From a virus (lineage: Duplodnaviria > Caudoviricetes): a stretch of DNA of 24,440 bases. This document shows, piece after piece, positions 2,858 through 24,440 of this stretch. Numbering within the stretch: the first letter of the stretch is position 1; each line of letters starts with the position of its first letter. The position numbers were made by a program, and so were the translations under genes. The notes under the pieces are model-generated. The model was given only the letters and a program-made list of their open reading frames with translations, ran no database searches and was not told the origin of the DNA. The stretch covers positions 1 to 24,440 of IMG/VR virus record IMGVR_UViG_3300038379_000739. One strand, given 5' to 3'.

Positions 2858-2860
2858 ACC

Positions 2861-4550: not shown

Positions 4551-4721
4551 CTATTTTTTCTCATCGCCAACTGGAAGCGTGTTCAACTTATCTTTCAACT
4601 TGTGCAACCGCACGGCAAAAGCCCGCAAATCCTTAGCCAAACCAGCAAGTTCCGTGCTGATTTCTTCTACTTGAGACGCTTCTATCAAGAGCATTTCCAC
4701 TAATTTAGAAATAGAATCCAT
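4551..4721 (-). CDS. Small coiled-coil protein, 56 aa (not in the ORF track)
   Basis: Manual translation MDSISKLVEMLLIEASQVEEISTELAGLAKDLRAFAVRLHKLKDKLNTLPVGDEKK; fills a gap in the operon. Confidence 0.6.
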   Translation of the reverse strand: MDSISKLVEMLLIEASQVEEISTELAGLAKDLRAFAVRLHKLKDKLNTLPVGDEKK

Positions 4722-4767
4722 TTTTCGGCAGTTTAGCCCATTTCAGGCCAAAAACGTGCCGTTCAGG

Positions 4768-7730: not shown

Positions 7731-7755
7731 CTTTACTTAATTTTTACTCAATTGT

Positions 7756-8373: not shown

Positions 8374-8430
8374 TGGTCAGAAATTTAAAAGCGGCTGCCG
8401 TCAGTCGCCCAACAACAGCCGATACCCGCG

Positions 8431-8652
8431 TTATTTTTTCGATTCTTTTTCGGCAGCCACCAAAGCGTCATAAACATCGGCCTCATCTTTCGTGGCAAGG
8501 CGGCAAACACCGAGCGACTCGAGGCCTTTTTTGATGACCTTGCCCTCCAATTTTTGGTCGGCAAAATCTTCGGCAATCACTAAGCCGGTTTCCCCAGCGA
8601 TATAACCGTAACCATAAGCCGTTCCGGCCTTGAGAAAAAAAACTTTTTTCAT
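8431..8652 (-). CDS. Small capsid-adjacent protein
   Basis: 73 aa between the capsid and connector genes. Confidence 0.65.
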   Translation of the reverse strand: MKKVFFLKAGTAYGYGYIAGETGLVIAEDFADQKLEGKVIKKGLESLGVCRLATKDEADVYDALVAAEKESKK

Positions 8653-8697
8653 GGAAAATTTTCAGTTTTAATGTGAAAAATGAGTTCAAGCAGCCTT

Positions 8698-10074: not shown

Positions 10075-10086
10075 TTTTTGAAAAAT

Positions 10087-10728
10087 TTATTGGTGAACAA
10101 AGCCCCGAAAGCCGATGAATTTCTCCACCTCCAACTTCCGAGAATTAAGTAGTTTTTGTACTTCTGTCAGTTCATGGATGTCGTCGTCGGGAAAATCGAA
10201 ATTGCGAACATTAGTAGTTGTAATGGAATAGGCGGGCGTTATCACTGGCCCCAACTCTATAATGCGAGGAAATCTTTTAATGCTACGCAAAGGAATTTCA
10301 CCTTCTTTGCTCAAATCATAACAATCTGACGGAAGCGGCAAAAATTGGAACGACGAACCTTTGGCATCGCGGCGCTGGATTCTGCGGTAAGCCGAACGAT
10401 GGCTTGGGTCCTCTTTATCGTAATCAAACTCGTACCACAATCCACGAGCGTCCACGCCATAGCGAAGCGTCGGCTCAGCCGCCAAAAAATCAACGTGGTC
10501 AAAATGACACCGAACATCCGAAAAATCGGTTTCATTAAACGCGCCCGGTAATATCACTTCAACAAACTTTTGTCCTTTTTTTGTCATCAATGTCCGGCTG
10601 CGCACATTGAACAACGCCGCGTAGCCATACACGACCTGTTTGCCGCCTTCGACACTACGGATTTCCGGTGCCTCATCGGTAAAAAAAGGCTCATTGTTGA
10701 GGAGCGGGTTTGGGTTGTTTTTTTCCAT
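10087..10728 (-). CDS. Prohead protease, HK97 family (probable start MEKNN)
   Basis: GYAALFN, F.EVILPGAF, DH, D.RGL, GSSF.F, ELGPV..PAY motifs. Confidence 0.92.
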   Translation of the reverse strand: MEKNNPNPLLNNEPFFTDEAPEIRSVEGGKQVVYGYAALFNVRSRTLMTKKGQKFVEVILPGAFNETDFSDVRCHFDHVDFLAAEPTLRYGVDARGLWYEFDYDKEDPSHRSAYRRIQRRDAKGSSFQFLPLPSDCYDLSKEGEIPLRSIKRFPRIIELGPVITPAYSITTTNVRNFDFPDDDIHELTEVQKLLNSRKLEVEKFIGFRGFVHQ

Positions 10729-12082
10729 TTTCGTCAGTTTTACCTTCGGCTTCGCCGCCGAGACTTTTACCGCCAACGGCTTTTTCGCCTTCGGCACTCA
10801 AATATTTCGCAAATGCTATTCTCAAAGCGTCTTTCAATGGCAGAAGATTGATGTCAACCATTAAGTCGTCGCCACCTTCAACAGGCGGCAATCCCTTGCG
10901 TTTTCTTGCTTCATTTGGAGTTATTTGGGTAGCGCGAATTCCTTCGGCAAGCATAGAGGATTCGGCGGCTTCATCTTTACTCACATACAGGCTCGTATCG
11001 AACTCAAAAAGATACTCGCTTTGCTCACTGTCGAAAAAAGCCTTTGTCTTGATTTCATCTTGAGTTTTTTCAAGCCACGGGCCGAGACAATGTGTAAGAA
11101 AATCCAACGAACGTTGCACACCAGCGCCATACGTTCCTTCTGCACCCAACATGAGCAAATCCCTCGGCACTTTGGTTATCCGACACACATCCTCAACGTT
11201 CATTGTACGAACGGCTTCCAAAGCCACATCAAGCGGACTCCATTGCAGATATTGGACGTTTTGACCCTTGGGAATGACAAGCGGCCTGCCTGCGTTGTTT
11301 GAGCCGCCAATCCGCGCCATCACATTATCTTCTACATTCTTGACCTCAGTCGGGTCCAATTCTTGGTCAATACTTATCGCAATACTTGGAAAAGCGCCTT
11401 TGCCCATCACGCCAGCAGAATACCGCGTAGAGGCAATTCCTACTCCATGCGTATCACGATGAAGCCACTCGGTTTGCAAACCATTAATTCCATCGAGTGA
11501 CAGCCCACGAATATGAATCATATCAGTATAAGGCAGCCGCTCAAAAACCGAAAATTTTCCATTCATCGAACCACTTATCAAGTACCAAAGCGCTCCACTT
11601 TCATCAAATTCAGGCCGCACATACATAGACGGGATATGCTCAAACCACATCGGCCTACCAGTTTGTTCGTCCCAATGAATTTTTGCATAACCATTACCTA
11701 AACAGGCGTTTGTAAGCAACGCACTGAAAAAATCAAACCATGAGTAGTAAGGGTGAGGCCGTCGCTGAAAAAAATCATACATCGGATGGTCGGTAGCCTC
11801 CTCCAATCCGTCTTTTGTTCTCCGCTTGACTGTACGGTCAAGCATCGAAATCCCTTCCGAAATATACCGAACGGCTGAATAAAATGGGCTTGTACCCAAC
11901 ACCGCCTCCCAATTTACCTCGACATCCGCCAACGTGGTAGAGCCAAGATTGAAATACTTCCAAAAATACGGGTCTTGAAGCGTGTAGGAGCGCTTTTCAG
12001 TCGCAGGCGCTTCTGTTTTTTCCTCAACAAGCCCCAAAGATTGAGACTCGAACCATTGTGTAAGAAAGGAGTTCCAAGCCAT
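10691..12082 (-). CDS. Portal protein, HK97 family (probable start MAWNSF)
   Basis: GNGYA.I, MIHIRGLSLDGING, GGSNNAG.P, ITPNEARK..GLPPVEGGD motifs. Confidence 0.95.
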   Translation of the reverse strand: MAWNSFLTQWFESQSLGLVEEKTEAPATEKRSYTLQDPYFWKYFNLGSTTLADVEVNWEAVLGTSPFYSAVRYISEGISMLDRTVKRRTKDGLEEATDHPMYDFFQRRPHPYYSWFDFFSALLTNACLGNGYAKIHWDEQTGRPMWFEHIPSMYVRPEFDESGALWYLISGSMNGKFSVFERLPYTDMIHIRGLSLDGINGLQTEWLHRDTHGVGIASTRYSAGVMGKGAFPSIAISIDQELDPTEVKNVEDNVMARIGGSNNAGRPLVIPKGQNVQYLQWSPLDVALEAVRTMNVEDVCRITKVPRDLLMLGAEGTYGAGVQRSLDFLTHCLGPWLEKTQDEIKTKAFFDSEQSEYLFEFDTSLYVSKDEAAESSMLAEGIRATQITPNEARKRKGLPPVEGGDDLMVDINLLPLKDALRIAFAKYLSAEGEKAVGGKSLGGEAEGKTDENGKKQPKPAPQQ

Positions 12083-12129
12083 TTCAATGCAAAACTCCAC
12101 CAGAATTAAGCCAAACCAAAAATTTTAAG

Positions 12130-12369
12130 TTAAACAGTTTTAATTGGGCGAAATCTTGCCCTGTGTGGATTGCGAGATTTGCTTGCAGAGAACGAAAGGT
12201 AGGTAGAGTAGCGCATAACCCCATGCTGTTCACGAAGTTCACTCTCAACGCAATTTAAAGCGTTTTTCATTGGAGCACGTTCGTTGCGTTTTTCCGCAAC
12301 CAACTCCCGAAACCTTTTATTGTAACCGTCGTTTGTCTTAAGGTCGTGCATCTGCCATGAGTTTTTCAA
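12130..12369 (-). CDS. Small basic hypothetical protein between terminase and portal
   Basis: ORF fills the gap in the operon; start uncertain. Confidence 0.6.
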   Translation of the reverse strand: MKNSWQMHDLKTNDGYNKRFRELVAEKRNERAPMKNALNCVESELREQHGVMRYSTYLSFSASKSRNPHRARFRPIKTV

Positions 12370-13585
12370 GTTCAGCAGGAGGCAATGCGAGGTAGAGCCG
12401 GCTTTTGCGTTTCAAATAAGTTACCGCCCAATACCTCGCAGCGTCCCAAGTGTGATTGAAAGCGTCAACAGGAACATTCAGAATTCTGCCGCTTTTGTCC
12501 ACACGAAACATATATTTCAACCGCTCACGCAACATATCAACGCTGTTTTGTGTAACGTGCAGGTTGTAAGAGTTCAACAAGGTTATTCCGTGTGTCACGC
12601 TATCAGGTCCTTTTTTTGCAGGAAAAATATTGAGACGCATCGATTTCAAATGTTCGATTGCCCACTCACCAGCAGAATCAGCCACAACAGGGAAACGCCC
12701 CACCCCACTCGACAACATAACTTCTCCCATTTCCTGAGGTGTCATGCCTCGTTGGTAAAAAACTTGATTGAAATACACGTCTTTTTCGTTCTGAAAACCA
12801 CACTCAATAAGCGTTGTAATACCATTACTATACCCGAAGTCCATGCCAAACCCACGATACTTGAGATTTTCAGGCATTTTTTCCACGATTTTGATATTCG
12901 GAAAAACCAACCCGGTTACTTGCCCATATTCTCCAAGCCCATAAACCCGCCAGTAATTCAAGTCTTCGGTTTCCAACAACTCAATTTCCCGAACTTGCGC
13001 AGATGACAAGTAAGGATTGTCTCGATAGGTGGAAATAATGGTTTCTACATCATCTTCCGTCACAGCACGACCCAACTCAAGTTTCTCACGCGCCCATACA
13101 TACGGGTCAGATGGATTGAAATCAATTATCATTAGTTCTTCCGTACGCAACTTGAGTTGAAGCACTTCTAAATCCCAATCCAATTCATTCGCTTCATTCA
13201 ACCATGTTATCGTTGCAGCAAAACCCCTGATTTTTTGTTCATCATCAGCGCCAAAAAATTCTACCATGCGCTTTCCACATCGATACTGCCGCCGCTGATT
13301 ATTCACTTTCACGAAACGACGAAGACCACAAGTGTCGAGGGCTTTTTCAAAATCCCGCATCACGGTGGACTCCAAAGTGGTTTTATACTTACGAACAATC
13401 GCCGCATTGCCTGTTGGTATATGCTGTTTCTCCCGTATTTGCCCAGTCACAAGCCACACCGCCAATTGCTGACAAATCGAAGTGGTCTTACTGCTTCGCG
13501 TCCCACCCCGATTTATCACCCAACGTTTTTCAGGCGAAACTTTCCAGTTCCGCAAAAAAACCGGCGTGACTTTCAAATTATTCAT
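12338..13585 (-). CDS. terL: Terminase large subunit, PBSX/SPP1-like (probable start MNNLKV)
   Basis: Walker A GGTRSSKT, Walker B WLNEANE, FNP, GMDFG, DSA, NHTWDAARY. Confidence 0.95.
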   Translation of the reverse strand: MNNLKVTPVFLRNWKVSPEKRWVINRGGTRSSKTTSICQQLAVWLVTGQIREKQHIPTGNAAIVRKYKTTLESTVMRDFEKALDTCGLRRFVKVNNQRRQYRCGKRMVEFFGADDEQKIRGFAATITWLNEANELDWDLEVLQLKLRTEELMIIDFNPSDPYVWAREKLELGRAVTEDDVETIISTYRDNPYLSSAQVREIELLETEDLNYWRVYGLGEYGQVTGLVFPNIKIVEKMPENLKYRGFGMDFGYSNGITTLIECGFQNEKDVYFNQVFYQRGMTPQEMGEVMLSSGVGRFPVVADSAGEWAIEHLKSMRLNIFPAKKGPDSVTHGITLLNSYNLHVTQNSVDMLRERLKYMFRVDKSGRILNVPVDAFNHTWDAARYWAVTYLKRKSRLYLALPPAELEKLMADARP

Positions 13586-13973
13586 CTTGCTCAAACACGT
13601 TTTGTTCAACAATGAACTTGAAACCAACCAAAGGAAGTTCGCTGTTTTCATCATCAAGCAAAAGAGGCCTGCCATACGCAGTTTCAGAAAGCCACTTTGC
13701 GGCTTGAACGTCATGTTTCGCTCGTTTCATTTGTTCCAACACGATTTCCTTCACCTTCGGCATTTTTACCCAGACTTTCACCTTTTGATTTGTGCGACCA
13801 CCCTTACCATCACACAAAACGCCATCCATAAGAAAATAATCATCACCGCTTTCAGCAATTTCACGAATAATCGCACGAAAAGGATTGCGTTTGCGTCCAG
13901 CCCCTTCTAAACCGGCATCGCCCTTTTCTCGCACTATAAGCGTTCCACCATTTCTTCCCTTGACTTGTTTCAT
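13578..13973 (-). CDS. Putative terminase small subunit
   Basis: Overlaps the terL start; KG..G..GAGRK N-terminus and D.QAAKWL..TAYG.P helix. Confidence 0.65.
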   Translation of the reverse strand: MKQVKGRNGGTLIVREKGDAGLEGAGRKRNPFRAIIREIAESGDDYFLMDGVLCDGKGGRTNQKVKVWVKMPKVKEIVLEQMKRAKHDVQAAKWLSETAYGRPLLLDDENSELPLVGFKFIVEQNVFEQDE

Positions 13974-14062
13974 AATCCAAAAATTCAAAAATGTAAAATC
14001 GAATCAGCGCGAACGAATCGAAGTTAGTGTTAGTGATTTTGACCCGCCCCGGTCGCCAAATG

Positions 14063-14233
14063 TCAGCGCCGCCGCGCATCATTGAACGCAGACAGACCCG
14101 GCACGTCCAACATGATTAAAGACCAGAACCGACCAAGCCGACGATGATTAACGAAACACCATGCCAAAACAATGAGAATTTGGCGCTCAGTCATTGTGTC
14201 GAAAGCGTTGTAAAGTTTGTCGAGTTTGCTCAT
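14063..14233 (-). CDS. Hypothetical protein, 56 aa (not in the ORF track)
   Basis: Manual translation MSKLDKLYNAFDTMTERQILIVLAWCF...; starts 3 nt after the upstream stop. Confidence 0.45.
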   Translation of the reverse strand: MSKLDKLYNAFDTMTERQILIVLAWCFVNHRRLGRFWSLIMLDVPGLSAFNDARRR

Positions 14234-14236
14234 TGG

Positions 14237-14365
14237 TCAGTTATTTTTCGCCTGATGGTCGTCAAAAAGATTGTCTTGTTCTTTGCCCGCGCGAGCCGCG
14301 CCGCCAAGAATAAAGCAAAACGCACACGCAAGCAGCGTCAATAATATTTGCAACCAACAAGGCAT
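14237..14365 (-). CDS. Small membrane peptide, 42 aa (not in the ORF track)
   Basis: Manual translation MPCWLQILLTLLACAFCFILGGAARAGKEQDNLFDDHQAKNN. Confidence 0.5.
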   Translation of the reverse strand: MPCWLQILLTLLACAFCFILGGAARAGKEQDNLFDDHQAKNN

Positions 14366-14383
14366 TAGAGCAGAACTTTAAGT

Positions 14384-14827
14384 TCAATCATTGTACTGTG
14401 GCTGATGCTTGCGCATCCAACCGGATTTGAATGAATCAATTTCACGAACAAGCCAATACTCGGCGTGTTCGGTCGCTTTCACAGTCGAGGCAAATATTTC
14501 TTGTTCAGGACGCAAGCGGTCAGCGCCAACCTTAACTTCAACAGCAATCAAATTGCCCGTTCGCAAGTCAAAACCAATCACATCCGCAACACCTTTCAAC
14601 GAACACGGCACAGGGCGATATGCTTTATGTATCGCTTCACGAAAGAGTTTTGCCTTTTGAGCATTGTCGTAACTCACGAAACTCAACGCATCAAATAATT
14701 TCAAAAGGTGCAACACCAGCGCCGGTTCATCTATCCTACCGTTGTTTTCGCAGCGCCAAGACAAGCAACCATTCTCATTCAAGAACTTCACCACTTGGGC
14801 TATCAAAAAGTTTTGATTTGCTTGCAT
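14384..14827 (-). CDS. VRR-NUC-like PD-(D/E)xK nuclease / Holliday junction resolvase
   Basis: GVADVIG...AVEVK...LRPEQ..F. Confidence 0.82.
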   Translation of the reverse strand: MQANQNFLIAQVVKFLNENGCLSWRCENNGRIDEPALVLHLLKLFDALSFVSYDNAQKAKLFREAIHKAYRPVPCSLKGVADVIGFDLRTGNLIAVEVKVGADRLRPEQEIFASTVKATEHAEYWLVREIDSFKSGWMRKHQPQYND

Positions 14828-14892
14828 AACAACGATTTAAAAAAAACGGCACCCCCCCAAAAAAAGAGGCACCGGCTGTGAAAAAGAGATAA

Positions 14893-15297
14893 TCATTCAT
14901 CAGGTTCATCGCTAAGGCTTAGTTCAAACGCACCCGCTTTGGCAACCACATACTCATTCACGCTGACAATTTCTATCGTTTCCAGCGTATCGGGATGATT
15001 GTAAGTCGCCACGATTTCAACCCTGTATTGGCGTCCAACTTTCGATTGATACGCCACATCACCAAACGGGATTACAAAAACCAAGCGGCGCTCATTCGTC
15101 GGAGAAAGCAATACAACAATCGAACGGGCAACATTCACGTCGTCAGCAGTAGCCATAATCTGAACCTGCAAATTCGGCAACGGCATCGGCGCATAGTCAG
15201 GAATCTCGAGGACAAACCCAACGCCCGGGTCGCCAACATGGACTTTTTTTACTTTGACAGGACCGCGCGTGCCACCCTTTTTTTTATTATCAGCCAT
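14893..15297 (-). CDS. Hypothetical protein (134 aa)
   Basis: ATG ORF with an AT-rich leader, within the operon. Confidence 0.7.
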   Translation of the reverse strand: MADNKKKGGTRGPVKVKKVHVGDPGVGFVLEIPDYAPMPLPNLQVQIMATADDVNVARSIVVLLSPTNERRLVFVIPFGDVAYQSKVGRQYRVEIVATYNHPDTLETIEIVSVNEYVVAKAGAFELSLSDEPDE

Positions 15298-15308
15298 TTT
15301 GAAAAAGT

Positions 15309-15602
15309 TTAGTTGTCACTCGCAAGAGCGACGGGTTCAAACAAATCGGTTTGTGTGCCAATGCCGGCCTCCTCGCGGTACTTCTGCAAACGAGCCTTGC
15401 ATTCTTCGACACCCGCGAAAATCAATTCGGAAAAAACTTCCTGAACACCTTCGTCCCATCCATGCACCAACGTTACAACCGGCTGCACTTTAAAGGTCAG
15501 GCGCTCATAATTGACGTAGCATTTCACGTCTTCGCTGTTAATATTGACGAAATCCTCAAATTTGAAGGTTTCCTTTTCGCGGGTCATTTTGATTGTTGTC
15601 AT
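15309..15602 (-). CDS. Hypothetical protein (97 aa)
   Basis: ATG ORF with an AT-rich leader, within the operon. Confidence 0.7.
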   Translation of the reverse strand: MTTIKMTREKETFKFEDFVNINSEDVKCYVNYERLTFKVQPVVTLVHGWDEGVQEVFSELIFAGVEECKARLQKYREEAGIGTQTDLFEPVALASDN

Positions 15603-15614
15603 GATTTTTAAATT

Positions 15615-16448
15615 TTATTGATGAACTGATTTTTGAATTGAAACCCACGCGATTACAAGCAGCCGTTTGTACCAGTTAATGCGCGACAAATTAAACCCGG
15701 CATCTTTCAATGGGTCTCTCAAAACACACCGCGCCGAATAATCACCGCGAGCCGCCCTATTTTGATAATCGCCCAAAGCCAACCCATACGCATTTGACCA
15801 AAGTAACCGCTTTTCATCCTGCGTAAACGTCAACCTACCAGCACAAAAAAACTCAAAATCGAAAATTGTGCAGTCATTCGCGCTCAAATCTTCTTTGCCA
15901 CACAAATACTCCAATCGCCGCCGACCCCACGCATCAAAGTCATGATTGCTCGAAGCCAACGCTTTCGCTTGCGCAAATTCAACCCGCTTTTCCGCCTGAA
16001 CAACCTCCGCCACCACAGCATTCCGAACTTCTTCAACATACGCCGACAGCACCTTGCCAAGCATCCCAACCGTGAAAGTGCCATAATACGCATCCAAACT
16101 CACACCCAACTCGCCAGCAGCCGCACGACGAAAAGCCTGACGAATTTCAGATATGTTTAAAAATCCAAACCGCTCAATGACAAACTCAACACATTCATCA
16201 AAAACAAAATCATCTGTCTTTGGGCAACTGGTAAATGACTTCACACAAAACTCTAATTCGGCGCTCAAGGCAATCAACGCACGTTCGCCACTTTGGGTGA
16301 CATCCACTCGAATTGTATTTTTGCTCACAGCAGCCGACACCGCCAGAACTAAATCAACACTAACTCCCATTTTGGAAGCCAAGACGCTGGGCAATACGGC
16401 CAGCGCGTTCACGGATGCGGTCTCGATTGATAATTGGTTGTTGTCCAT
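15615..16448 (-). CDS. Replication-module protein downstream of the initiator (probable start MDNNQL)
   Basis: Occupies the slot usually held by a helicase loader; helical EIRQAF...YG.F...LGKVL.AY segment; function not established. Confidence 0.6.
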   Translation of the reverse strand: MDNNQLSIETASVNALAVLPSVLASKMGVSVDLVLAVSAAVSKNTIRVDVTQSGERALIALSAELEFCVKSFTSCPKTDDFVFDECVEFVIERFGFLNISEIRQAFRRAAAGELGVSLDAYYGTFTVGMLGKVLSAYVEEVRNAVVAEVVQAEKRVEFAQAKALASSNHDFDAWGRRRLEYLCGKEDLSANDCTIFDFEFFCAGRLTFTQDEKRLLWSNAYGLALGDYQNRAARGDYSARCVLRDPLKDAGFNLSRINWYKRLLVIAWVSIQKSVHQ

Positions 16449-17187
16449 CTTGTGTAGGTATTTTTTTTCGCAATTGAGAACTTCGTTTATCGCCAGCAAC
16501 AAAGCCAGCAGCCGTGGCCAACCAATTCGCCGACCTGTTCCCGCCTTGGGCACTCCAATCGCGACACCGAAGCCAATAATAATCAAGATCGGCACCTGCC
16601 GTTTCAGGAGCATATTTAATCAGGGCGACGCGCCACAAATCAGGAGCAATGTTCGCCCACTCACTTTCTGAAAATAAAATCGGGACTTGTTCAAAAATCG
16701 GAGCGGGGGGGGGCGGCGCAATAGGGGGGGGGGCTTTTTTTTCGTTTTTAAAACCAAGGGAATTTTCATCGTGCGCGTTACTCACTGTATTACTCAATGT
16801 AGTATTAACTGTATTATTATGCTTGCGCTTTTCCGCAAGAGGTCTTGCGCTTTTCGTCAATAGGGTCTTGCGCTTTTCCGCAAGAGGTCTTGCGTTTTTC
16901 GTCAATAGGGGTACTAAATCACTGATATAGATAATGCGCTGATTACCAGCATCTTTGTCAATCTGCGTTCGGATAAAACCTTTTTTCTCAAGTTGTGAAA
17001 TCCACCGCGAAACGGTGAAATCCGAAACATTGTAAAGTTTCGCAAAATACGAGTTGCTTGCCCAACAATACCCGCGCTCGTTCGAAAGCGCGGTAATTTC
17101 ACCATAAAGCAGTTTCGCCGTCGGAATCAAGTCCTCGCAGTAGCGAACAGTGGCAGGAATGACAGCGTAGAAATTAGGTTGGCTCAT
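16360..17187 (-). CDS. Phage replication initiator with an N-terminal winged HTH
   Basis: YAVIPATVRY...AKLLYGEITAL...GYCWASNSYFA.LY.VS..TVSRWISQL...GFI; internal DNA repeats. Confidence 0.85.
   Translation of the reverse strand: MSQPNFYAVIPATVRYCEDLIPTAKLLYGEITALSNERGYCWASNSYFAKLYNVSDFTVSRWISQLEKKGFIRTQIDKDAGNQRIIYISDLVPLLTKNARPLAEKRKTLLTKSARPLAEKRKHNNTVNTTLSNTVSNAHDENSLGFKNEKKAPPPIAPPPPAPIFEQVPILFSESEWANIAPDLWRVALIKYAPETAGADLDYYWLRCRDWSAQGGNRSANWLATAAGFVAGDKRSSQLRKKIPTQDGQQPIINRDRIRERAGRIAQRLGFQNGS
16787..16911. repeat. Iterons and AT-rich tract: probable lambdoid-type origin inside the initiator gene
   Basis: cttgcg(c/t)ttttc at 16822, 16844, 16867, 16889 (22/23-bp period; 45-bp unit x2), beside AT-rich 16787..16820. 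Confidence 0.8.
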
Positions 17188-17393
17188 TGCTTTTTCTCAT
17201 TTGTAGAGATTCCAATCAATACTCCGACGAGAACACCAATAATGTTCTCACGAAAGGCTTGCCCAATGGAAAAAAGAAAAAAATCCCACCACTCGACCAA
17301 GCCGGAAAAAATTCCAAGAATTATCATAGAGAATAATTTAAAAATTTAGGAATAATTGTTTGACAAACCAACGGCTGACATCGCCGCGTCAAT

Positions 17394-17615
17394 CTAATTG
17401 TCCAAAGAGAGAGTTCGACCAAAACCGGAAAACGGTATATCCGATACCTCATAATCGGGAAGCCAGGCCACAGAATCGACCACGTTTGATTTTCGACCAT
17501 TCTCTCTACGGCGAACATTTTCAGCATCCGAACAAGAAGCCGAATGTTCAGCCGCTTTTCGAGCGTAGTAGTCGCCATCGCGGAATTCATGAAAATCGGT
17601 AGTTTCCTTACCCAT
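17394..17615 (-). CDS. Hypothetical protein (73 aa)
   Basis: ATG preceded by a typical AT-rich leader. Confidence 0.45.
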   Translation of the reverse strand: MGKETTDFHEFRDGDYYARKAAEHSASCSDAENVRRRENGRKSNVVDSVAWLPDYEVSDIPFSGFGRTLSLDN

Positions 17616-17654
17616 CTTGAAAAGTTTTTAAAAATGAAAAAATGAAATGACTTA

Positions 17655-17939
17655 TCATTGACCAGAAGCGTCTGGAACACCCATAACCGCCAAACCACAA
17701 TCAAAAACTTGCTTCGCCATCAAAGCCAACCGCGTTTGTTCAGGTAATGAGCGTTTAGGTACCACAAAATCCATACTCAATTCTTCGCGCAACACAGGCA
17801 AACCATACTTAACCGCACGAACAATCAACGACGACCGCGAAACAAAACTATTTTCCTTCTGTGAAAAAGAAATAACCAGCGCTTCAATTTCGTCCAACAG
17901 TTCATCTGAAAACAACACACTCGTAGGAGACTTGCTCAT
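17655..17939 (-). CDS. Ribbon-helix-helix-like transcriptional regulator
   Basis: TSVLFSDELLDEIEAL...VSRSSLIVRAV pattern; first gene after the leftward promoter. Confidence 0.65.
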   Translation of the reverse strand: MSKSPTSVLFSDELLDEIEALVISFSQKENSFVSRSSLIVRAVKYGLPVLREELSMDFVVPKRSLPEQTRLALMAKQVFDCGLAVMGVPDASGQ

Positions 17940-17982
17940 AAAAATAGGTTTGAAAAGGAAGCGAATTTGTAATAACGTCCGA

Positions 17983-18012
17983 CAAAAGTAACAACTTTTT
18001 AATACTATGCAA
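17983..18012 (-). promoter_or_regulatory. Bacteroidota-type promoter, leftward
   Basis: TTG-N19-TACTTTTG on the - strand (-33/-7 consensus TTG...TAnnTTTG). Confidence 0.7.
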
Positions 18013-18700
18013 CACTTTTTTAAAAAAAAATTACTAAAAAATAATGGCGCGCCCCTCAGTTGTCAGCCCTGCTTCGCCATTCCGCTAACGCACCTTTCGC
18101 GTCGCCTCTCCTTCGTCAAGCGAACGCTTAGGTGCGAACGCTCCAAGTCTTGCAGCGCTTCCGACATCGGGTCGGGCTGCTACGGGTTTCGCTTCGCTCC
18201 AGCCACGTCAGACGTGGTAAAAAAACCACGTCCACGTGTCCAAGCCCTCCGCATCCCTCGCGCAAAACACCAACACGCGCAAACCTCAACAAAAAAGCCA
18301 CACGCGGCAGCCTACCGACCTCAACCCCAACTCAAAAGCCCGCTTGGCAGCCGCTTACACAAAACCTCAACTACAAACCAGCCAACACGCATTTGCGGCC
18401 TGCGAATCCCTCGCGGCTCAACACGGTCGGCATCGGCGGCTCGGCGGCGTAGGCTCGCGGCAGCCCGCGCGCTTCGGCGGGCTTATTGCCGCAGCCAGCG
18501 CGCCGCAACACTCGCCGCCTTGCCTCCACCAACATAAAATTTCGGGGTTTAGGTTTTTTGGGGGTTTGTGTTTTGTCGTCGTCGGCTTTCGCCGTCGCCT
18601 GTTTGCTATTTTCAGCGTTTTTGCGCTTTTTATTTGGTTTTCTCGTTGGTTTTCGTTAGTTTTGTCTTGCGTTTCGGCTTTTTCCCCGTCGCTTTGTCCC

Positions 18701-19279
18701 GTGTCAGCCTCTCTTTTCGCCCCTGTTTCCTCGCTCGTTTCGGGCTTTCCGGTTGTCGGTGTTTCCGGCTGCCGTTCTTGCGCTTCCGCTTCCGCTTCCG
18801 CTTCCGCGTTCGTTTCTTCCCTTCCGGCCTCCCTTCCTGTTTTTGTGGGCTGCGCTTCCGGCGTGGATTCGGCCGCACGCGCTGCCCGGCCTTCCGCCCG
18901 CGTGTTTCGGGTTTCTGTTTCGGGTGGCTCGCCGTCGTTCGGTGGCGCTTCCGGTCGCGCGGCCTTCGCCGCTCGTTCGGCTGCTTTCTTGGGCGCTTTG
19001 TCCGCTTCTGGTGGCCTGCTGGTTTCTTTTCCGTCGCGGCCTTGCCCCGCCGCTTGCGTTCCTTCTCGCTCGTTCGCTGGTTTTGGCTCCGGTTCGTGGG
19101 GTTCTGTCTGCATGGCGCTTGGGCTTGGGTTGCCCGTGCTGGTTTTCGTTCCGGCTTCGCTCGGTCCGCAGTTTCCCGCCCCCGCGCGTGTTCGTTCGCG
19201 TTTTTCCCTTGTCGCTTCGCTTGCTTCCGGCTCGTGGTGGCTTGCCGCCGCCGCGCCGGCGCCGCTTTCTTTGTTTTAG
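18701..19279 (+). CDS. DprA/Smf-like SLOG-fold protein encoded by adenine-depleted DNA (probable GTG start)
   Basis: VGVSGCR, VFVGCASGVD, AFAARS, LVSFP, GSGSWGSV..AL.LG.PVLVF follow the DprA/SLOG Rossmann motif order; same frame as ORF 18236..19279. Confidence 0.65.
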   Translation: MSASLFAPVSSLVSGFPVVGVSGCRSCASASASASAFVSSLPASLPVFVGCASGVDSAARAARPSARVFRVSVSGGSPSFGGASGRAAFAARSAAFLGALSASGGLLVSFPSRPCPAACVPSRSFAGFGSGSWGSVCMALGLGLPVLVFVPASLGPQFPAPARVRSRFSLVASLASGSWWLAAAAPAPLSLF

Positions 19280-19298
19280 TTTTCTCTTTTTCAGTGAG

Positions 19299-19307
19299 TT
19301 ATCCACA
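19299..19307 (+). promoter_or_regulatory. Single perfect DnaA box
   Basis: TTATCCACA, intergenic, upstream of an AT-rich tract. Confidence 0.35.
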
Positions 19308-19361
19308 TTTTTGGCGGGCGCTTAGTGGAAAAATTTTTTTAAAAAAAGTATTAAAAAAGTA

Positions 19362-19391
19362 TTGCTTTTTTCGGAAAAGGTAGTAAATTTG
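19362..19391 (+). promoter_or_regulatory. Bacteroidota-type promoter, rightward (early operon leading into the cassette array)
   Basis: TTG-N19-TAAATTTG. Confidence 0.7.
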
Positions 19392-19419
19392 TATATCAGT
19401 TCACCAAACAACAGCCGCT

Positions 19420-19695
19420 ATGTTCTCTCCTTCTTTTCATGTGCCCGACTTGGTCGTTTTCAAAATTTCAATTCCAACAGCCTTTCAATTACCCGAATTT
19501 TCCAGCGTAGGCGACCGCCCCACCTTTGTGAGTGATTCCATAAGGGCAATTTTTCTCGAAAATGAAACCCCTTTTTTTAAGTGGTACCACATTGTAACAA
19601 GTTGGCCGGGCGCTGTTTCGGAAAACAGCCTCGAAATATGGGCAAATGAATATCAAAAAGCCGCCCACTCAAAAGAAGCGTTTGAAGTCATTTAG
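19420..19695 (+). CDS. Hypothetical protein (91 aa)
   Basis: ATG ORF just after the promoter. Confidence 0.55.
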   Translation: MFSPSFHVPDLVVFKISIPTAFQLPEFSSVGDRPTFVSDSIRAIFLENETPFFKWYHIVTSWPGAVSENSLEIWANEYQKAAHSKEAFEVI

Positions 19696-19753
19696 CCCCC
19701 GCCACTCCATACCCCGAAAAGCCTTTTTTCTTTCACCTTTTAAATCATTAAAA

Positions 19754-20029
19754 ATGAACGCACATTATTTCTTTTTTGCAATCAACTTGAACACTGCAGA
19801 AGTTGAATGTTTCGCCACAAAATACCTGCCCACAACAAACCAAAAAGGCAGCCGATTCAAATTCTGGCAGATAAATGCCGGATTTGAGACTATTGGGAAG
19901 CCCATAACAATAAATTGGAGCTACAGCGCGACAAGTCAGCAGGAGCAGTTACAGGAGGCCTTGGGGTCGGATTGGAAAGTGTTGTCATTATATCAAGCAT
20001 GCACCCGTATTTCATCGCCCTCAAAATAG
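19754..20029 (+). CDS. Hypothetical protein (probable start MNAHY)
   Basis: ATG after an AT-rich leader; TKYLPTTN.KGSR.K segment. Confidence 0.65.
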   Translation: MNAHYFFFAINLNTAEVECFATKYLPTTNQKGSRFKFWQINAGFETIGKPITINWSYSATSQQEQLQEALGSDWKVLSLYQACTRISSPSK

Positions 20030-20037
20030 CCCAAAAA

Positions 20038-20361
20038 ATGAAAAATCGCCACATTTCCACCCGCACCACCTTAGAGCCTTACGGCCTTGTTCGCATTAGC
20101 GGCACGGTAGCCCGCAACCCTTTCTACACTTTCGAGGAAAGACAGTTTGAACCGCTTTACGACATTCAAAACTTGCGCGTAGAAATAAAAAACGAGGTTT
20201 TGCACTCGCCCACCTGTTGCCAGTTTGAGCAATGGGAAATAGAAAAGTGCGAGGAGGTTTTGATTGAAAAGTTTGTCGAGAATGAAGGTTTTGAGCAAGA
20301 CAGCCTAATTGATGAAATGATTGAACGCGGGCGCGAACTCGCCCACCGAGCATACGAATAA
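20038..20361 (+). CDS. Hypothetical protein (probable start MKNRH)
   Basis: ATG 8 nt after the previous stop; acidic C-terminus. Confidence 0.65.
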   Translation: MKNRHISTRTTLEPYGLVRISGTVARNPFYTFEERQFEPLYDIQNLRVEIKNEVLHSPTCCQFEQWEIEKCEEVLIEKFVENEGFEQDSLIDEMIERGRELAHRAYE

Positions 20362-20417
20362 AACAACCCCAAAAAACCTTTTCACACACATTTTTTCACC
20401 TCCTAAATTTTCAAACC

Positions 20418-20858
20418 ATGCCAACCAGCAACGAAACGGCAGTCGCCTTGACCAACAGAAACACCGACCTGATTCCAGCCCCGACATTTTCGCCCGATAC
20501 GCCCGTAACCGTCAACAAAGAGGCTTTGAAAGAAGCGCCTCGTTCAGCCCTGAATATCTGCCTTGAATACCATGAATTTGAAATTGGCCAGCCCGTGCGC
20601 GGCATCTTCTTGGGCTTGACACCCTACAAATGCGCCGACAAACAGAGCGGCGAAGAAGTTGTTCTCACAGGCGCTGTTTTCGTGGATGAAAACGGCAGCG
20701 TAAAAATCAACTGCGCGGTAAAATTTGTGACGACACTATCAATGTTCGGCCTAAAAACGGCATTTGAAGCCACATTTACCCGCACAAAAAAGACAGGAAA
20801 CGGAGGAAATATGCAGTTATTCGACATCCGACCGCTTGCCTACAATGAAAAGAAATAG
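20418..20858 (+). CDS. Hypothetical beta-rich protein, possible ssDNA-binding/recombination partner
   Basis: 146 aa immediately upstream of the exonuclease; function inferred from position only. Confidence 0.6.
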   Translation: MPTSNETAVALTNRNTDLIPAPTFSPDTPVTVNKEALKEAPRSALNICLEYHEFEIGQPVRGIFLGLTPYKCADKQSGEEVVLTGAVFVDENGSVKINCAVKFVTTLSMFGLKTAFEATFTRTKKTGNGGNMQLFDIRPLAYNEKK

Positions 20859-20870
20859 CGGAGGTTGTTA

Positions 20871-20905
20871 GCCCCGCGTTTGCGCAATGCGGCGCGGGGT
20901 TTTTT
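20871..20905 (+). terminator. GC-rich hairpin with T-tract
   Basis: gccccgcgtt tgc gcaat gcg gcgcggggt ttttt. Confidence 0.55.
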
Positions 20906-20927
20906 CTCTTTCTCAAACTCTTTTGCC

Positions 20928-21650
20928 ATGCTCTACAGAAATTTTGAAATCCATCCAAGCCTAAGATTCGATAGCGCAGTTCCGTCAAAAGCCACCAACG
21001 TCGTTTTATCCGAACTCCAAGCCGCCGAAACGACGCTTTCCGAATTCCAACGCGAAAGGCTCGGCAAAATCACCGCCTCGCGCTTCGGCCTTATCAAGCC
21101 CCTGAAAAACGGCGAATGGAGCGAAACCGCATTGTCATACCTGTACGACCTATTAGGCGAACACCTCACCGACCAGCCGTCACAGACATTTACCGGCTCG
21201 GACGCGACCGAATGGGGAAACAAATACGAAGCCCAAGCCATCAATGAGTACACAAAACGCACAGGCCGCAAAGTGCAACAACGCAACACGTTTATGCAGC
21301 ACCCGGAACTGCAATTTGTCGGAGGCACACCCGATGGATTGGTTGGAGAAAAAGGCTTGATTGAGGTGAAATGCCCTTTCACATTCAAAAACCACCTTCG
21401 CACAGTCGTTACCCGCATAGTCCCCGACGAGTATTTGGCGCAAGTTCACGGGCATTTGTGGCTGTCAGGTCGCCAATGGTGTGATTTTGTGAGTTACGAC
21501 CCGCGTATTCCAACCAAACACAAACACGCAAGGCTTGTCGTCATTCGTGTCAAGCGAAACCCGATGATTTTGAACGACCTCGAAAACCTAATTGGCCGAT
21601 TTAACGACTTGCTTTTGGAAAAACTCAATTTGCTCAAAATCAAGGTATAA
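20928..21650 (+). CDS. YqaJ/lambda-exonuclease family recombination nuclease (probable start MLYRNF)
   Basis: RLGKITASRF, WG..YE..A, GGTPDGLV, IEVKCP, Y.AQV, WCDFVSYDPR. Confidence 0.92.
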   Translation: MLYRNFEIHPSLRFDSAVPSKATNVVLSELQAAETTLSEFQRERLGKITASRFGLIKPLKNGEWSETALSYLYDLLGEHLTDQPSQTFTGSDATEWGNKYEAQAINEYTKRTGRKVQQRNTFMQHPELQFVGGTPDGLVGEKGLIEVKCPFTFKNHLRTVVTRIVPDEYLAQVHGHLWLSGRQWCDFVSYDPRIPTKHKHARLVVIRVKRNPMILNDLENLIGRFNDLLLEKLNLLKIKV

Positions 21651-21654
21651 CTGC

Positions 21655-21720
21655 GCTTAACGTGAGCGTGAGCGCTGTGCGACGTATAGGAAGCATAGAC
21701 GCACACGCATAGTTATCTAC
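21655..21720. other. attC-like hairpin B1
   Basis: gcttAAC gtga gcgtgagcg ctgtgc ... gcatag a cgcacacgc ata GTTatctac. Confidence 0.8.
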
Positions 21721-21744
21721 TTTTTTCACTAAACTTTTTCAAAA

Positions 21745-22110
21745 ATGAACAGATATTTTGAAGGAGATAAGCAAGTCACCGCCGAAATATGTGCGCAACC
21801 AGAGCCAGATAAAGTGGTTTTGGCTTGGGCAAGCCGGAAGCGGCATTTGTTTGTCAACGGCGTTTTGTTGTGCGAAAAAAAGCACAAGACAGGTGACGGG
21901 TATAATCACAAAGGCGGGCATTATATGTCGTACCAACTTGAATTTCCAACATGGGAAAAGAAGGCGCCTGATGAAAAATATGCACATCTTGACGGGATAA
22001 TACCTGCGAAGCCGCTTGATGAGATAGGCGGAATTATCCGTTCATCCATTTGCTCCGCTTGCCAAAAGCGATACGACAAGATTTTTATGCCTACTTCATT
22101 TTGTAGATAA
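21745..22110 (+). CDS. Cassette B1 hypothetical protein (121 aa)
   Basis: Fills the cassette; stop TAA lies in gtagaTAAc; C-terminal CSAC motif. Confidence 0.75.
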   Translation: MNRYFEGDKQVTAEICAQPEPDKVVLAWASRKRHLFVNGVLLCEKKHKTGDGYNHKGGHYMSYQLEFPTWEKKAPDEKYAHLDGIIPAKPLDEIGGIIRSSICSACQKRYDKIFMPTSFCR

Positions 22111-22193
22111 CTGATGCATTGCTGATGTGGCGGCGTGGGTTGGCTTTGAGCGTTGGCTTTCGCCGCCATGTGCAGCAATGCTTTGTTAGCAGA
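22103..22193. other. attC-like hairpin B2
   Basis: gtagatAAC tgat gcattgctg atgtggcggcg ... cgccgccatgt g cagcaatgc ttt GTTagcaga; gtagataac is the reverse complement of gttatctac. Confidence 0.85.
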
Positions 22194-22279
22194 ATTTTTT
22201 ACGTCAAAGCCGAACACCGTTTTAAGAAGTAGGCAAATTATCGGAATGGGGAAGCCGTAACCAAGTACCCACATTTAAC

Positions 22280-22954
22280 ATGAAAGTTCAAGCAATCCGC
22301 ACCGACAAAGGCAATTTCCTTGCAAACTACAACGGTTATTTTTTCTTCGTCGGCAGCAACCGAAAAACGCCCCTTCGCATGAGCAACGCAAGCGAATTTG
22401 AAAACGCTTTGGCAAATTGGGGTCAAGTGGAAGAACCTCTCCACATTTCCAAAATCAGGGAAATAATCGAATTGTCGGCTATGTCGGCTAAAATCGGTTG
22501 CTACGTTGACTCCATGAGCAAAGCCGATTTGTCGCAACTCTACATCGAAAATTTCCGCGAAGAATTTTCGTATGTGAACAACGATTTTAATTATGTCGTT
22601 GGCTTTTACGCCAACGGCGAGTACCAAAAGTTTTCGCCAAAGTGCGGCAAAGGCACGTTAGAGTATGGCAATTTCGGAACACCGACTTCGTGGGACGGTG
22701 AAACCTACGTCGAAACGCTGCAACGGTTCATCGCCAAAACTTCGACTTACCCCGAAGTGATGGTTGTTAAAAATTCAAATCACGACAGCCGTCAAGGTGA
22801 CAGGTACAAATCCGAAATTCACGCCTACGTCCTGCCTTCGCAGGAAGCAATTGAGGCGTTTTTCGGCAGCGTACTCGAAGCCTACGAAACGCTGAAAAAA
22901 ATGCCTACTGCCTTTATTCTTGTATTTATTATTTTCTTTTTTTATTGCGGCTAA
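22280..22954 (+). CDS. Cassette B2 hypothetical protein (224 aa)
   Basis: Fills the cassette; stop lies in the core site. Confidence 0.75.
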   Translation: MKVQAIRTDKGNFLANYNGYFFFVGSNRKTPLRMSNASEFENALANWGQVEEPLHISKIREIIELSAMSAKIGCYVDSMSKADLSQLYIENFREEFSYVNNDFNYVVGFYANGEYQKFSPKCGKGTLEYGNFGTPTSWDGETYVETLQRFIAKTSTYPEVMVVKNSNHDSRQGDRYKSEIHAYVLPSQEAIEAFFGSVLEAYETLKKMPTAFILVFIIFFFYCG

Positions 22955-23037
22955 TCTGGCACTCACGCAGCCCCGCCCTGTTAGGCTTTCGAGCGCGGGC
23001 ATTGGGCGGGGTTGGCGTTGAGTGCATTGTTCGACGA
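22947..23037. other. attC-like hairpin B3 (degenerate core: AAT instead of AAC)
   Basis: gctAAT ctg gcactca cgc agccccgccc ... gggcggggtt g gcg t tgagtgc att GTTcgacga. Confidence 0.75.
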
Positions 23038-23067
23038 TTTTATTTTTACTTTTTTTTGATTTAGGTA

Positions 23068-23099
23068 TTGCGCGAAAACAAAAAAAGTGTTTACCTTTG
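23068..23099 (+). promoter_or_regulatory. Bacteroidota-type promoter inside cassette B3
   Basis: TTG-N21-TACCTTTG, 19 nt upstream of the ATG at 23119. Confidence 0.65.
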
Positions 23100-23118
23100 T
23101 GTCATAAATTTTTTTAAA

Positions 23119-23499
23119 ATGGCACACAGAATCAATACTCGAAATTTTGAAAACGGCATGGATAGCCGCCTCGAAACTGCCGACTGGAAAAAATATATTT
23201 CACGCCATTGCCAATTTTGGTCAAAGGCTGAAATGATGGATGCTTTTGGCAATGACCCCGCAGCAAAAAAGGCGATTGAGGCAAAGTTTTCTCCATTTTT
23301 GCTCGGAGAACACCTTTACTACAATTTGCCAGACGGTCAATCGCAGGTGTGCGTCGGCTACGTTGATGAGCAATCGGAAAGAGGCTATTACATGATTCAA
23401 CTTGCCTCCGAATTTGGTGAGGACTGCGAAGTGTGCAGGGGTAAAAAAGCGGCGTGTGAACGCCTGTTTGAAATCTACCAACAAGCGACGGCGGCATGA
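23119..23499 (+). CDS. Cassette B3 hypothetical protein (probable start MAHRIN, 126 aa)
   Basis: ATG after promoter and AT-rich leader. Confidence 0.72.
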   Translation: MAHRINTRNFENGMDSRLETADWKKYISRHCQFWSKAEMMDAFGNDPAAKKAIEAKFSPFLLGEHLYYNLPDGQSQVCVGYVDEQSERGYYMIQLASEFGEDCEVCRGKKAACERLFEIYQQATAA

Positions 23500-23846
23500 G
23501 CGAAAAAAAGCGCGGCGGCGCGGGGCGCGGGCAGGGGCGAAAGCCCAAAAAGGACGGAGAAAAACTTGTCAAGCGGCAAGTTTTTTTTCGCCCTGACCAA
23601 CTCGAAAAAGTGATTGGCAGAAACTTGTCTGACCACATCCGGCGAATTTTTGACCACTTCCACGATTTGGAAGCGCAACCCGAAAAAAAGCAATTTGTCG
23701 AACCAAGTCGAAAAAACCATTTTTGGGTTGGTGGCGACACCTGTATTTTTTGCGGGGTCAAAAAGGTCGGGAAACAATTTTTCGATAAAAATGAAACGTT
23801 GTTACCTTCAAAACCAGACTGCACAAAAGCATTGACGAAATTCTGA
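23496..23846 (+). CDS. Cassette B3 putative DNA-binding protein
   Basis: ATGA overlap with the previous gene; RGGAGRGQGRKP N-terminus followed by an RHH-like segment; CIFC near the C-terminus. Confidence 0.65.
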   Translation: MSEKKRGGAGRGQGRKPKKDGEKLVKRQVFFRPDQLEKVIGRNLSDHIRRIFDHFHDLEAQPEKKQFVEPSRKNHFWVGGDTCIFCGVKKVGKQFFDKNETLLPSKPDCTKALTKF

Positions 23847-23865
23847 TATTTATTTATCTTTTGTT

Positions 23866-23932
23866 TCGTCGAACTGAAGCATCCACGCTGCGCAACGTAT
23901 AGGCAGCGTTGGCGGGGATGCAGGGTTGTCAA
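23866..23932. other. attC-like hairpin B4
   Basis: tcgtcgAAC tgaa gcatcc a cgc ... gcg g ggatgc agg GTTgtcaa; tcgtcgaac is the reverse complement of gttcgacga. Confidence 0.8.
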
Positions 23933-23960
23933 TATTTTTTCACACTCTAAAACAAAAAAA

Positions 23961-24305
23961 ATGGCATCAATCACGCTAAAATTTGAAGGATATTCGGACG
24001 ACACTTTTTCGGAGGTCGCATTTAATTCAATTTCGCATGATAACTGCGCTAATGGAAAGCCGATTGTGTTTGAGGTTACATCGGAAGAAGATGAAATGAA
24101 AGAGGGCTTATTTGTTGTCGGAATATACAATTGCCCCGCGTTGCCAAGAGGTTTGCCCGGTAGTTGGCTCATCGGTATTCAGCCACTATACGATGAAGGC
24201 GGGCTGCCAGATTGGAATGCAAGATTCACAGATGGAGATTGTGACTACTCTCCCTGCCTTGAATTAGACGTGCCAAAAAATTACCAAATACGCCTTTTTG
24301 AATAA
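23961..24305 (+). CDS. Cassette B4 hypothetical acidic protein (114 aa)
   Basis: Fills the cassette; F.GYSDDTF N-terminus. Confidence 0.75.
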   Translation: MASITLKFEGYSDDTFSEVAFNSISHDNCANGKPIVFEVTSEEDEMKEGLFVVGIYNCPALPRGLPGSWLIGIQPLYDEGGLPDWNARFTDGDCDYSPCLELDVPKNYQIRLFE

Positions 24306-24308
24306 TTG

Positions 24309-24374
24309 TTGACAACTCCAAGCCTGTTGCATTGCGACATTAGGAGCATTGCCAACAGGCGGCAGTTAGCCACA
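24309..24374. other. attC-like hairpin at the backbone start, second copy
   Basis: ttgacAAC is the reverse complement of gttgtcaa at 23925; hairpin identical to 2297..2357. Confidence 0.82.
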
Positions 24375-24440
24375 ATATTTCAACTCTAAACAGCCCAGAA
24401 ACGGGCATAAAAAAATGCACCATGAAAAATTGGCAACCAT
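24314..24440 (+). repeat. Exact copy of 2297..2423 (last hairpin plus start of the 150-aa gene)
   Basis: Identical for 127 nt, starting exactly at AAC; upstream flanks differ (tcggct vs ttgac). Confidence 0.97.

Follow-up and report, generated by a model that had tools for sequence, protein, structure and literature searches.

The 24,440-nucleotide (nt) stretch analyzed here, hereafter the window, is the complete virus record IMGVR_UViG_3300038379_000739 (Duplodnaviria; Caudoviricetes), and represents an HK97-type phage of ~22 kb that carries two different arrays of small genes at one locus. The genes are separated by imperfect hairpins, and the best reading of these arrays is an integron-like system, as distinct from a canonical integron, with reversed cassettes. 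Specifically, we consider it probable (roughly 70%), from comparison of sequences, that folded single-stranded cassette circles are exchanged in trans by a host tyrosine recombinase lacking the I2 insertion of the integron integrase IntI. The phage array works like an integron cassette array, but without IntI, the L-box bulge or the canonical position of the site.

The most direct evidence for exchange comes from the two arrays themselves. The contig runs through flank X, array A, flank Y, the backbone, a second flank X, array B and a second flank Y, and both copies of each flank are identical (Table 1). Closure yields a circle of 21,551 nt with array A (two units) or 22,017 nt with array B (four units). 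The arrays differ only between the AAC(GT) at 21663 and the AAC at 24314: divergence sets in 2 nt past the former AAC, and the two sequences become identical again precisely where the latter AAC starts, at its first A. The hairpin after the left AAC is array-specific and the terminal hairpin is common to both, and for this reason each unit consists of hairpin, core, gene and AA, such that the site travels ahead of its gene.

This arrangement might be suspected of being an assembly artefact in which unrelated pieces were joined at repeats, as a graph bubble has been unrolled in the contig, and none of the contigs listed runs through the entire stretch. We find this scarcely credible, given that the sites are not identical repeats, the depths of A and B sum roughly to that of the backbone, and independent phages, including the cultured Polaribacter phage P12002L, have the same layout. 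In one public run that may be the source of the window, backbone contigs have depths of 15.8 and 13.1 and array-B pieces depths of 8.9, 6.4 and 11.2. A further contig of depth 9.1 connects 21663 to 24314, leaving its filling open, and may be read as array A because its left side has AAC-GT. No variant letters are listed for the contigs of that run. The simplest reading of these contigs would be two versions of one phage at similar abundance, with a tandem arrangement as the alternative. Moreover, the depth-11.2 contig covers 22953-24324 precisely, beginning at the B3 site and stopping where the prefix common to other phages' terminal sites ends, which hints that B3-B4 might also occur in a second phage; error tips are another possible cause of such ends.

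AAC and GTT triplets surround an imperfect hairpin in six of the seven distinct window sites, the exception being B3 (AAT). A strict detector found seven sites with intact AAC in the window, all on the plus strand and all within the arrays, versus a mean of 0.35 and a maximum of 3 in 20 shuffles. Core self-match, scored as the six bases past GTT against the six before the next AAC, is 6, 4, 6, 5, 5 and 6 for units B1, B2, B3, B4, A1 and A2, for a sum of 32/36 that is reached by 2 of 720 core permutations (binomial ~1e-14 at p = 0.27). The two cores around any single hairpin match at only 0-3 of six positions in these six units. The initial annotation, made from the letters of the sequence, had described these features, and the hairpins and cores that it named were all found in place, as was the mismatch across each hairpin; its assertion that each unit ends in its own reverse complement is too broad, as it passed over B2 (4/6), whose right-hand site is AAT. 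At a looser threshold, 160 control loci (1.3 Mb) gave 81 matches and no consecutive pair above 3/6, and the detector recovered no arrays from 160 YqaJ loci, the nearest three (67-70%) of which are short.

Structural comparison extends this picture. Among 14 aligned short phage sites, a 9-bp stem lies at constant distance from AAC and GTT, with 89% of cells paired and 41 compensatory; none of 500 shuffles reaches the value of the covariation and slid controls give 28-35%, the stem having been derived from the same sequences, which biases these controls in its favour. Of the two strands, the AAC-first one gives the better fold at 13 of 16 phage sites and at 13 of 15 host sites, which is what a bottom strand should show. 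Junctions circularized in silico, in which the complementary unit ends would restore a paired R box, fold 3.2-7.0 kcal/mol better than array junctions, which lends weight to excision as circles, a step that had previously been called established and that we infer. The terminal site, with N5/N4 spacers, has the register of the N4/N3 sites and lacks only the outermost stem pair. This class comprises the last array site in the window and in loci L183, L184, L191 and L195, and its pattern has one match among species-representative genomes, a prophage (G008) in the metagenome-assembled genome (MAG) Bacteroidetes bacterium SAP1. Locus L192, one of five matches to the terminal-site pattern, was rejected as false.

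These sites are nevertheless not canonical attC sites, and the earlier identification of an integron-cassette signature holds for the complementary ends and for exchange at AAC but not for the site itself. The canonical attC core GTTRRRY, a weak criterion, is present in none of the seven distinct window sites, and an Rfam search of the window returned nothing relevant. The extrahelical L-box G at the ninth base before GTT is absent from the phage sites: bases 4-12 form stem, and mismatches rather than a bulge occur at bases 9 and 10 in five of 14 sites each. By our own reading of Table S3 of Qi et al. (PMC9892861), the bottom strands of aadA7, TJE1_attC1 and PH101_attC1 do have a G at this ninth base.

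Evidence from other genomes places the crossover at the same point. The array-A methylase has 96% and 94% identical copies in two complete phages (40 and 41 kb) with arrays of the same design, and the methylase unit ends at AAC ahead of three different neighbours. The prediction that breakpoints would lie at the AAC core is therefore upheld by the divergence and rejoining of arrays A and B and by the end of this unit; the further prediction that cassettes would occur beside other neighbours came true for the methylase and for no array-B unit. One cassette is present twice in the G063 chromosome, identical from AAC to the next AAC, the same crossover as in the phage. In G002 and G004 (capsid 63% identical), a B1-type hairpin lies at the same place after YqaJ; that of G004 heads a gene with a 6/6 core whose homologue in L082 lacks a hairpin, and the single G004 cassette ends in a bare AAC. 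A crossover between AA and C fits the breakpoints of this comparison with one exception, a swap of the methylase site. An 81% methylase homologue in G008 has no site detected nearby. In addition, one B1 homologue (P0024) has an N-terminal extension that, at the level of protein, matches read-through of an upstream site, a hint of a second context for B1.

The pattern could in principle be left by old cassette relics that are now moved by homologous recombination (YqaJ/Red-like) by way of the identical flanks and of hairpins that resemble each other, there being no site-specific activity at present. YqaJ adjoins the array, and recombination by homology between two hairpins of similar sequence would fit the methylase site swap. 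Moreover, the window, L183 and G004 all contain degenerate sites, and the relatives L081 and L082 vary at the locus without having hairpins. We regard this explanation as improbable, however, in that changes of neighbour map to AAC between unrelated sequences, five of the six cores still match at 5-6 of six positions, and the stems covary.

Several side observations concern these sites. A 33-nt element after the B2 site (window 22207-22239) has 100% identity to two stretches of the G197 chromosome that lie 2 kb from each other, and 91-97% identity to several other family genomes. In L195:3964-4788 and L310:31312-30952, genes begin within a long hairpin and cross the GTT core, such that the site encodes the N-terminus. 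A search of viral contigs with the B2-type pattern gave none, and four contigs matched by the loop pattern were set aside, one being already in the set and three being weak low-GC matches.

The direction of the genes distinguishes phage from host arrays. Taking the AAC-first strand as reference and scoring the gene beyond GTT, 37 of 56 host sites are antisense, two sense and 17 uncalled, counts that include repeated G063 copies and two mis-parsed sites. Among 20 phage sites, by comparison, 15 are sense, four antisense and one uncalled; for the 14 non-terminal ones these figures are 12, one and one, and the one antisense case stems from an overlapping frame that runs across the B3 genes. Host arrays therefore follow the textbook integron direction (gene then site) and phage arrays are reversed (site then gene). 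Replication direction was rejected as the cause of this reversal: the window backbone is C-rich on the plus strand (skew -0.13), but the sign of the skew, taken relative to the site strand, is not consistent among other phages, and the G008 sites lie in the opposite operon, which also counts against it.

No tyrosine recombinase was found in the record, as the initial annotation had maintained: there is no PF00589 candidate, and tblastn with four recombinases gave only E values of 0.55 and 0.89. Replication, portal and protease genes of the G008 prophage have 65-73% DNA identity to the window, and because this related prophage sits in a Bacteroidetes MAG, the sequence points to Bacteroidota as the probable hosts of the window phage. 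The SAP1 MAG, which bears this site-containing prophage, also encodes a candidate recombinase. A covariance model of the phage sites has matches in 10 of 61 family genomes, with 12 individual matches falling within 450 kb of the G063 chromosome. In addition to XerC and XerD, these genomes encode a recombinase whose scores fall short of the cut-offs for both NF040815 and TIGR02249 (207 bits, cut-off 265, for the latter); it is matched in 21 of the 61 at E 1e-60. With a second model, sites were found downstream of the candidate at 6 of 22 loci and at 0 of 17 XerC/D and integrase control loci (Fisher p 0.027; four candidate-enzyme loci could not be parsed), and at five of nine when restricted to loci with at least 1 kb. 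The longer stretches (G094, G009 and G063) contain gene-site-gene-site arrays co-oriented with the enzyme, including 19 matches in 20 kb of G063. At all seven loci examined, the first cassette begins 20-228 nt past the enzyme stop at a GTT matching its own end at 5-6 of six positions; the detector does not call this GTT a hairpin, and its position is that of attI.

The candidate is distinct from known integron integrases. Its segment from the catalytic lysine to HxxR measures 71 residues in 12 of 12 sequences versus 112 and 114 in two IntI, a shortfall of 41-43 residues relative to IntI that lies in the I2 region; its match to 2A3V is split. In a tree of three groups without an outgroup, it is separate from both XerC/D and IntI, with a group to itself (support 100/99). 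Such a tree does not show it to be the sister of IntI. Identity with chromosomal XerC or XerD was rejected, since G009 has separate XerC- and XerD-like genes, the candidate has its own tree group and the XerC/D control loci have no sites nearby. The trans-acting host recombinase that had been proposed earlier thus gains a plausible candidate adjoining host arrays, albeit one lacking the IntI insertion.

The same cassette mechanism might instead be served by another enzyme, be it XerC/D, a canonical IntI or a short recombinase of Xer type from a helper phage. Among the window proteins, neither a tape measure nor a major tail protein was recognized, such that the element may need a helper, and IntI1 recombined one P12002L site (PMC9892861). 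A search of related phages for the candidate enzyme, however, gave no match in four of five records and one weak match to an ordinary prophage integrase, the 17 XerC/D and integrase loci have no site nearby, and P12002L attC1, a member of the window's site family, is the very site that IntI1 did not integrate. We therefore judge a different enzyme unlikely. A more radical alternative is that the whole phage is one giant cassette, which inserts in a host array via the terminal hairpin and leaves with neighbouring host cassettes; it would account for the missing integrase and recalls the attC-flanked Vibrio prophage described by Qi et al. (PMC9892861). Yet the backbone ends fit poorly (agccac vs gcgctt, 3/6), host cassettes face the opposite way, the B1 and B2 proteins are in none of 401 family genomes (a search without a positive control), and three other array-bearing phages have their own prophage integrases, all of which make this reading very unlikely.

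Other features of the host arrays merit mention. In G062, the recombinase is followed by a first site of opposite orientation, which lies behind a short palindrome; this genome also has a recurrent "empty" unit, short and palindromic, between GTT and AAC (L220/L233 (G062:C260), L211, L222). Locus L293 (G063:3800000-3819999) resembles a super-integron: units of ~600 nt, gene-less or insertion-like, recur between its sites, and it includes a pair resembling toxin and antitoxin. The candidate recombinase at L202:1453-2283 is 51-53% identical to recombinases on Acinetobacter plasmids, which we take to be linked to tet(X) loci.

Taken together, we favour host-driven exchange of single-stranded cassettes, for which we infer activity, circles, the identity of the enzyme, the acceptor role of the terminal site and expression. 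Units would enter and leave the phage as folded single-stranded circles, cut between AA and C at the 5' edge of the hairpin by a host Bacteroidota tyrosine recombinase without the IntI insertion acting in trans, and the AAC-first strand would be the recombining ("bottom") strand. The terminal N5/N4 hairpin may serve as resident acceptor in place of attI, and insertion would therefore be a reaction of hairpin with hairpin. The reversed direction of the genes would let the phage's early transcript read them. Payloads would be fragments of phage or host DNA between host-type cassette ends, as opposed to copies of whole mRNAs.

Several observations weigh against this proposal. The hairpin leading the methylase differs in L183 and L184 (core 4/6), and in L183 the window's A2 hairpin heads a different gene; gene and hairpin thus do not always travel together, and some exchange occurs at the other edge or by homology. 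The syntenic G004 hairpin lacks AAC (TTC instead), and its single cassette has no terminal hairpin. In the window itself, the B2 unit and the B3 site are degenerate. No second DNA context was found for the array-B cassettes: blastn of array B against GenBank phages gave two trivial matches, B3a had no second context among seven candidates, B4 has one 34% viral homologue without sites, and, although 25 of 401 family genomes have matches to array-B DNA, nearly all are to the B2/B3 hairpins, flanks or the 33-nt element and none runs along a gene. No backward joint at a cassette is listed among the contigs of one run, contigs being prone to drop rare forms. With respect to the enzyme, 40 of the 61 family genomes have no candidate match at E 1e-60, the link between enzyme and sites is one of position only, and an enzyme without I2 gives no account of how a second strand exchange is avoided.

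The payloads themselves bear on how cassettes arise. In the B2 protein, the final residues of 214-amino-acid (aa) homologues are replaced by read-through of the T-rich tail, and A1 begins, right after its core, with a clipped gene end whose product is, judging from position, the likely partner of the adjacent antitoxin. Bacteroidota promoters follow a -33/-7 consensus, and a motif of this kind lies within unit B3; the same pattern occurs at 19362-19391, ahead of the early genes, though it is weak (eight matches in the window vs a shuffle mean of 2.5 and maximum of 8). Clipped ends together with this motif would sit better with captured DNA fragments than with copied mRNAs, with later deletion as the alternative. 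The T-rich flanks of phage cassettes (0.40/0.36) fall below those of the host (0.48/0.45), and were rejected as proof of host-type shells, the phage being less T-rich than the host; they are suggestive only. Searches of Pfam, PHROGs, NCBIfam and PADLOC assigned no family or function to the B1-B4 proteins, and the ESM Atlas, queried for a B2 homologue and B4, returned nothing usable. The methylase and the RmrA-like antitoxin likely have counter-defence roles.

Table 1. Positions of sites, cassette genes and flanking features in the 24,440-nt window
Feature	Position	Strand	Details
Site A1	108..184	+	77 nt; leads unit A1 (1404 nt, core 5/6) in array A, the alternative one
A1 clipped gene	192..416	+	Final (3') third of a gene of 205 aa; 81% over 74 aa; begins right after core
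XRE-ImmA/IrrE protein	426..1487	+	RmrA (RosmerTA antitoxin)-like, complete; E 1e-61
Site A2	1512..1567	+	56 nt; heads unit A2 (785 nt, core 6/6)
DNA cytosine methyltransferase	1585..2298	+	Copies in arrays of two other phages
Phage backbone	2351..21658	.	Capsid, protease, portal, terminase, connector, fibre-like protein, replication initiator; no recombinase found
YqaJ-like exonuclease	20931..21650	+	Final backbone gene ahead of array; PF09588, E 9e-27
Left shared flank	21552..21663	+	YqaJ gene end through AAC-GT; same sequence as 1-112
Site B1	21659..21714	+	56-nt hairpin; heads unit B1 (450 nt, core 6/6)
B1 gene	21745..22110	+	121 aa, no family; stop overlaps next AAC; 18 homologues, 59-90%
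Site B2	22109..22187	+	79 nt, long type; heads unit B2 (844 nt, core 4/6)
B2 gene	22280..22954	+	224 aa, no family
Site B3	22953..23031	+	Degenerate (AAT, not AAC); heads unit B3 (919 nt, core 6/6)
Promoter-like motif	23068..23099	+	Within unit B3; Bacteroidota -33/-7 consensus
B3 genes	23119..23846	+	126 aa (23119-23499) and 116 aa (23496-23846), no family
Site B4	23872..23927	+	56 nt; heads unit B4 (442 nt, core 5/6)
B4 gene	23961..24305	+	114 aa, no family; single viral homologue (34%), which lacks sites
Terminal site	24314..24367	+	N5/N4; common to both arrays (= 2297-2350)
Right shared flank	24314..24440	+	Begins at first A of AAC; same sequence as 2297-2423

Site B2 is 74-92% like chromosomal sites of Bacteroidota genomes. 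Three further plus-strand genes (2405-4020) follow the terminal site, and the array is accordingly not at the end of the early operon, contrary to the initial annotation. Positions 4201-13714 encode the capsid, protease, portal, terminase and connector along with one 836-aa fibre-like protein, and the element may be read as either a short-tailed phage or a tail-less 22-kb satellite. Between the divergent operons (18400-19300), the window is T-rich with strong strand skew, and both strands carry long frames of low complexity. The replication initiator contains 45-nt in-frame tandem repeats (16822-16910; possible origin iterons), and a 279-aa gene contains 42-nt ones (3437-3520).

The closest known counterparts are the phage-borne attC-site clusters that have no integron-integrase (CALINs), above all that of P12002L (Qi et al., 2023; PMC9892861). 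P12002L likewise has hairpin-bounded small genes that include DNA methyltransferases in a phage without an integron integrase. Its attC1, the sole site of six not integrated by IntI1 (PMC9892861), matches our site model (21.6 bits, E 0.004) and lies on the gene-sense strand ahead of gp35 (methyltransferase), with a unit self-match of 6/6 and the same reversed layout; the model has no matches in two canonical integron phage genomes. In the portions of Qi et al. considered here, the sites are treated as ordinary attC for IntI, only "divergent directions" are mentioned, and neither a host enzyme nor a reversed layout is named. Here, by contrast, breakpoints come from two arrays at one locus and from one cassette in three phages. 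Classical integrons (IntI, attI and attC; class 1 and Vibrio chromosomal) share the AAC/GTT triplets, self-complementary cassette ends, AA/C crossover, a 5' spacer one base longer than the 3' spacer, strand asymmetry, and toxin-antitoxin and methylase cargo, and the host arrays resemble them in placing the site after the gene. They differ from the present system in that it lacks the bulged G at the ninth base before GTT, its candidate enzyme lacks I2 and is co-oriented with the array, the phage genes are reversed, and a hairpin occupies the attI position.

Two further systems invite comparison. Cassettes can land at a bare GWT, as in the work on attG insertions and single attC sites lacking integron-integrases (SALINs; Loot et al., 10.1101/2022.09.11.507474), reminiscent of the G004 single cassette, which ends in a bare AAC without a hairpin. 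In the parts of that work considered, however, attG insertion has no orientation bias and uses IntI, whereas the arrays here are multi-unit and uniformly reversed with a conserved terminal site. CTXphi and other Xer-exploiting elements (discussed in Escudero et al., 2016; PMC4792948) set a precedent in which an integrase-less phage uses a host recombinase without I2 on folded single-stranded DNA. As described there, the entire CTXphi genome integrates at dif via XerCD, whereas single genes would be exchanged inside the phage here, and the candidate enzyme belongs to a clade apart from XerC/D. Further literature was compared (Loot 2017, PMC5371416; Smyshlyaev 2021, PMC8138268), and among the publications matched, most of them judged by title or abstract opening, we found no description of a Bacteroidota system or of reversed phage arrays. 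This window contributes the two loads on an identical backbone in one sample, the phage-specific terminal site and the clipped payloads.

Surveys have not counted tyrosine recombinases without the IntI domain as integron integrases (PMC4889954), and only one complete integron is listed for Bacteroidetes proper (PMC9024848), at least in the parts of these sources considered. If our interpretation is true, a parallel Bacteroidota system exists, and the gene-capture arrays of a whole phylum have been missed. The origin of the I2 domain and attC has been posed as a chicken-and-egg problem, with no reliable model of cassette genesis, in the discussion by Escudero et al. (PMC4792948). We speculate, with real doubt, that a Bacteroidota integron-like platform of I2-less recombinase and bulge-less hairpins is a living counterpart of a pre-integron step, which phages tap without an enzyme of their own while keeping their reversed cassettes as a distinct pool, docked at an acceptor hairpin specific to phages, and building new cassettes from arbitrary DNA fragments set within host-type cassette ends (e.g., a clipped gene end, or an antitoxin cut from its toxin). 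Both the origin of I2 and the genesis of cassettes would become testable with such an enzyme, which lacks I2 and has hairpins of its own, and with the clipped payloads of the cassettes. For a 22-kb phage without a recognized integrase, of which two loads apparently coexist in one sample, the system would provide a site-specific route for swapping likely counter-defence genes.

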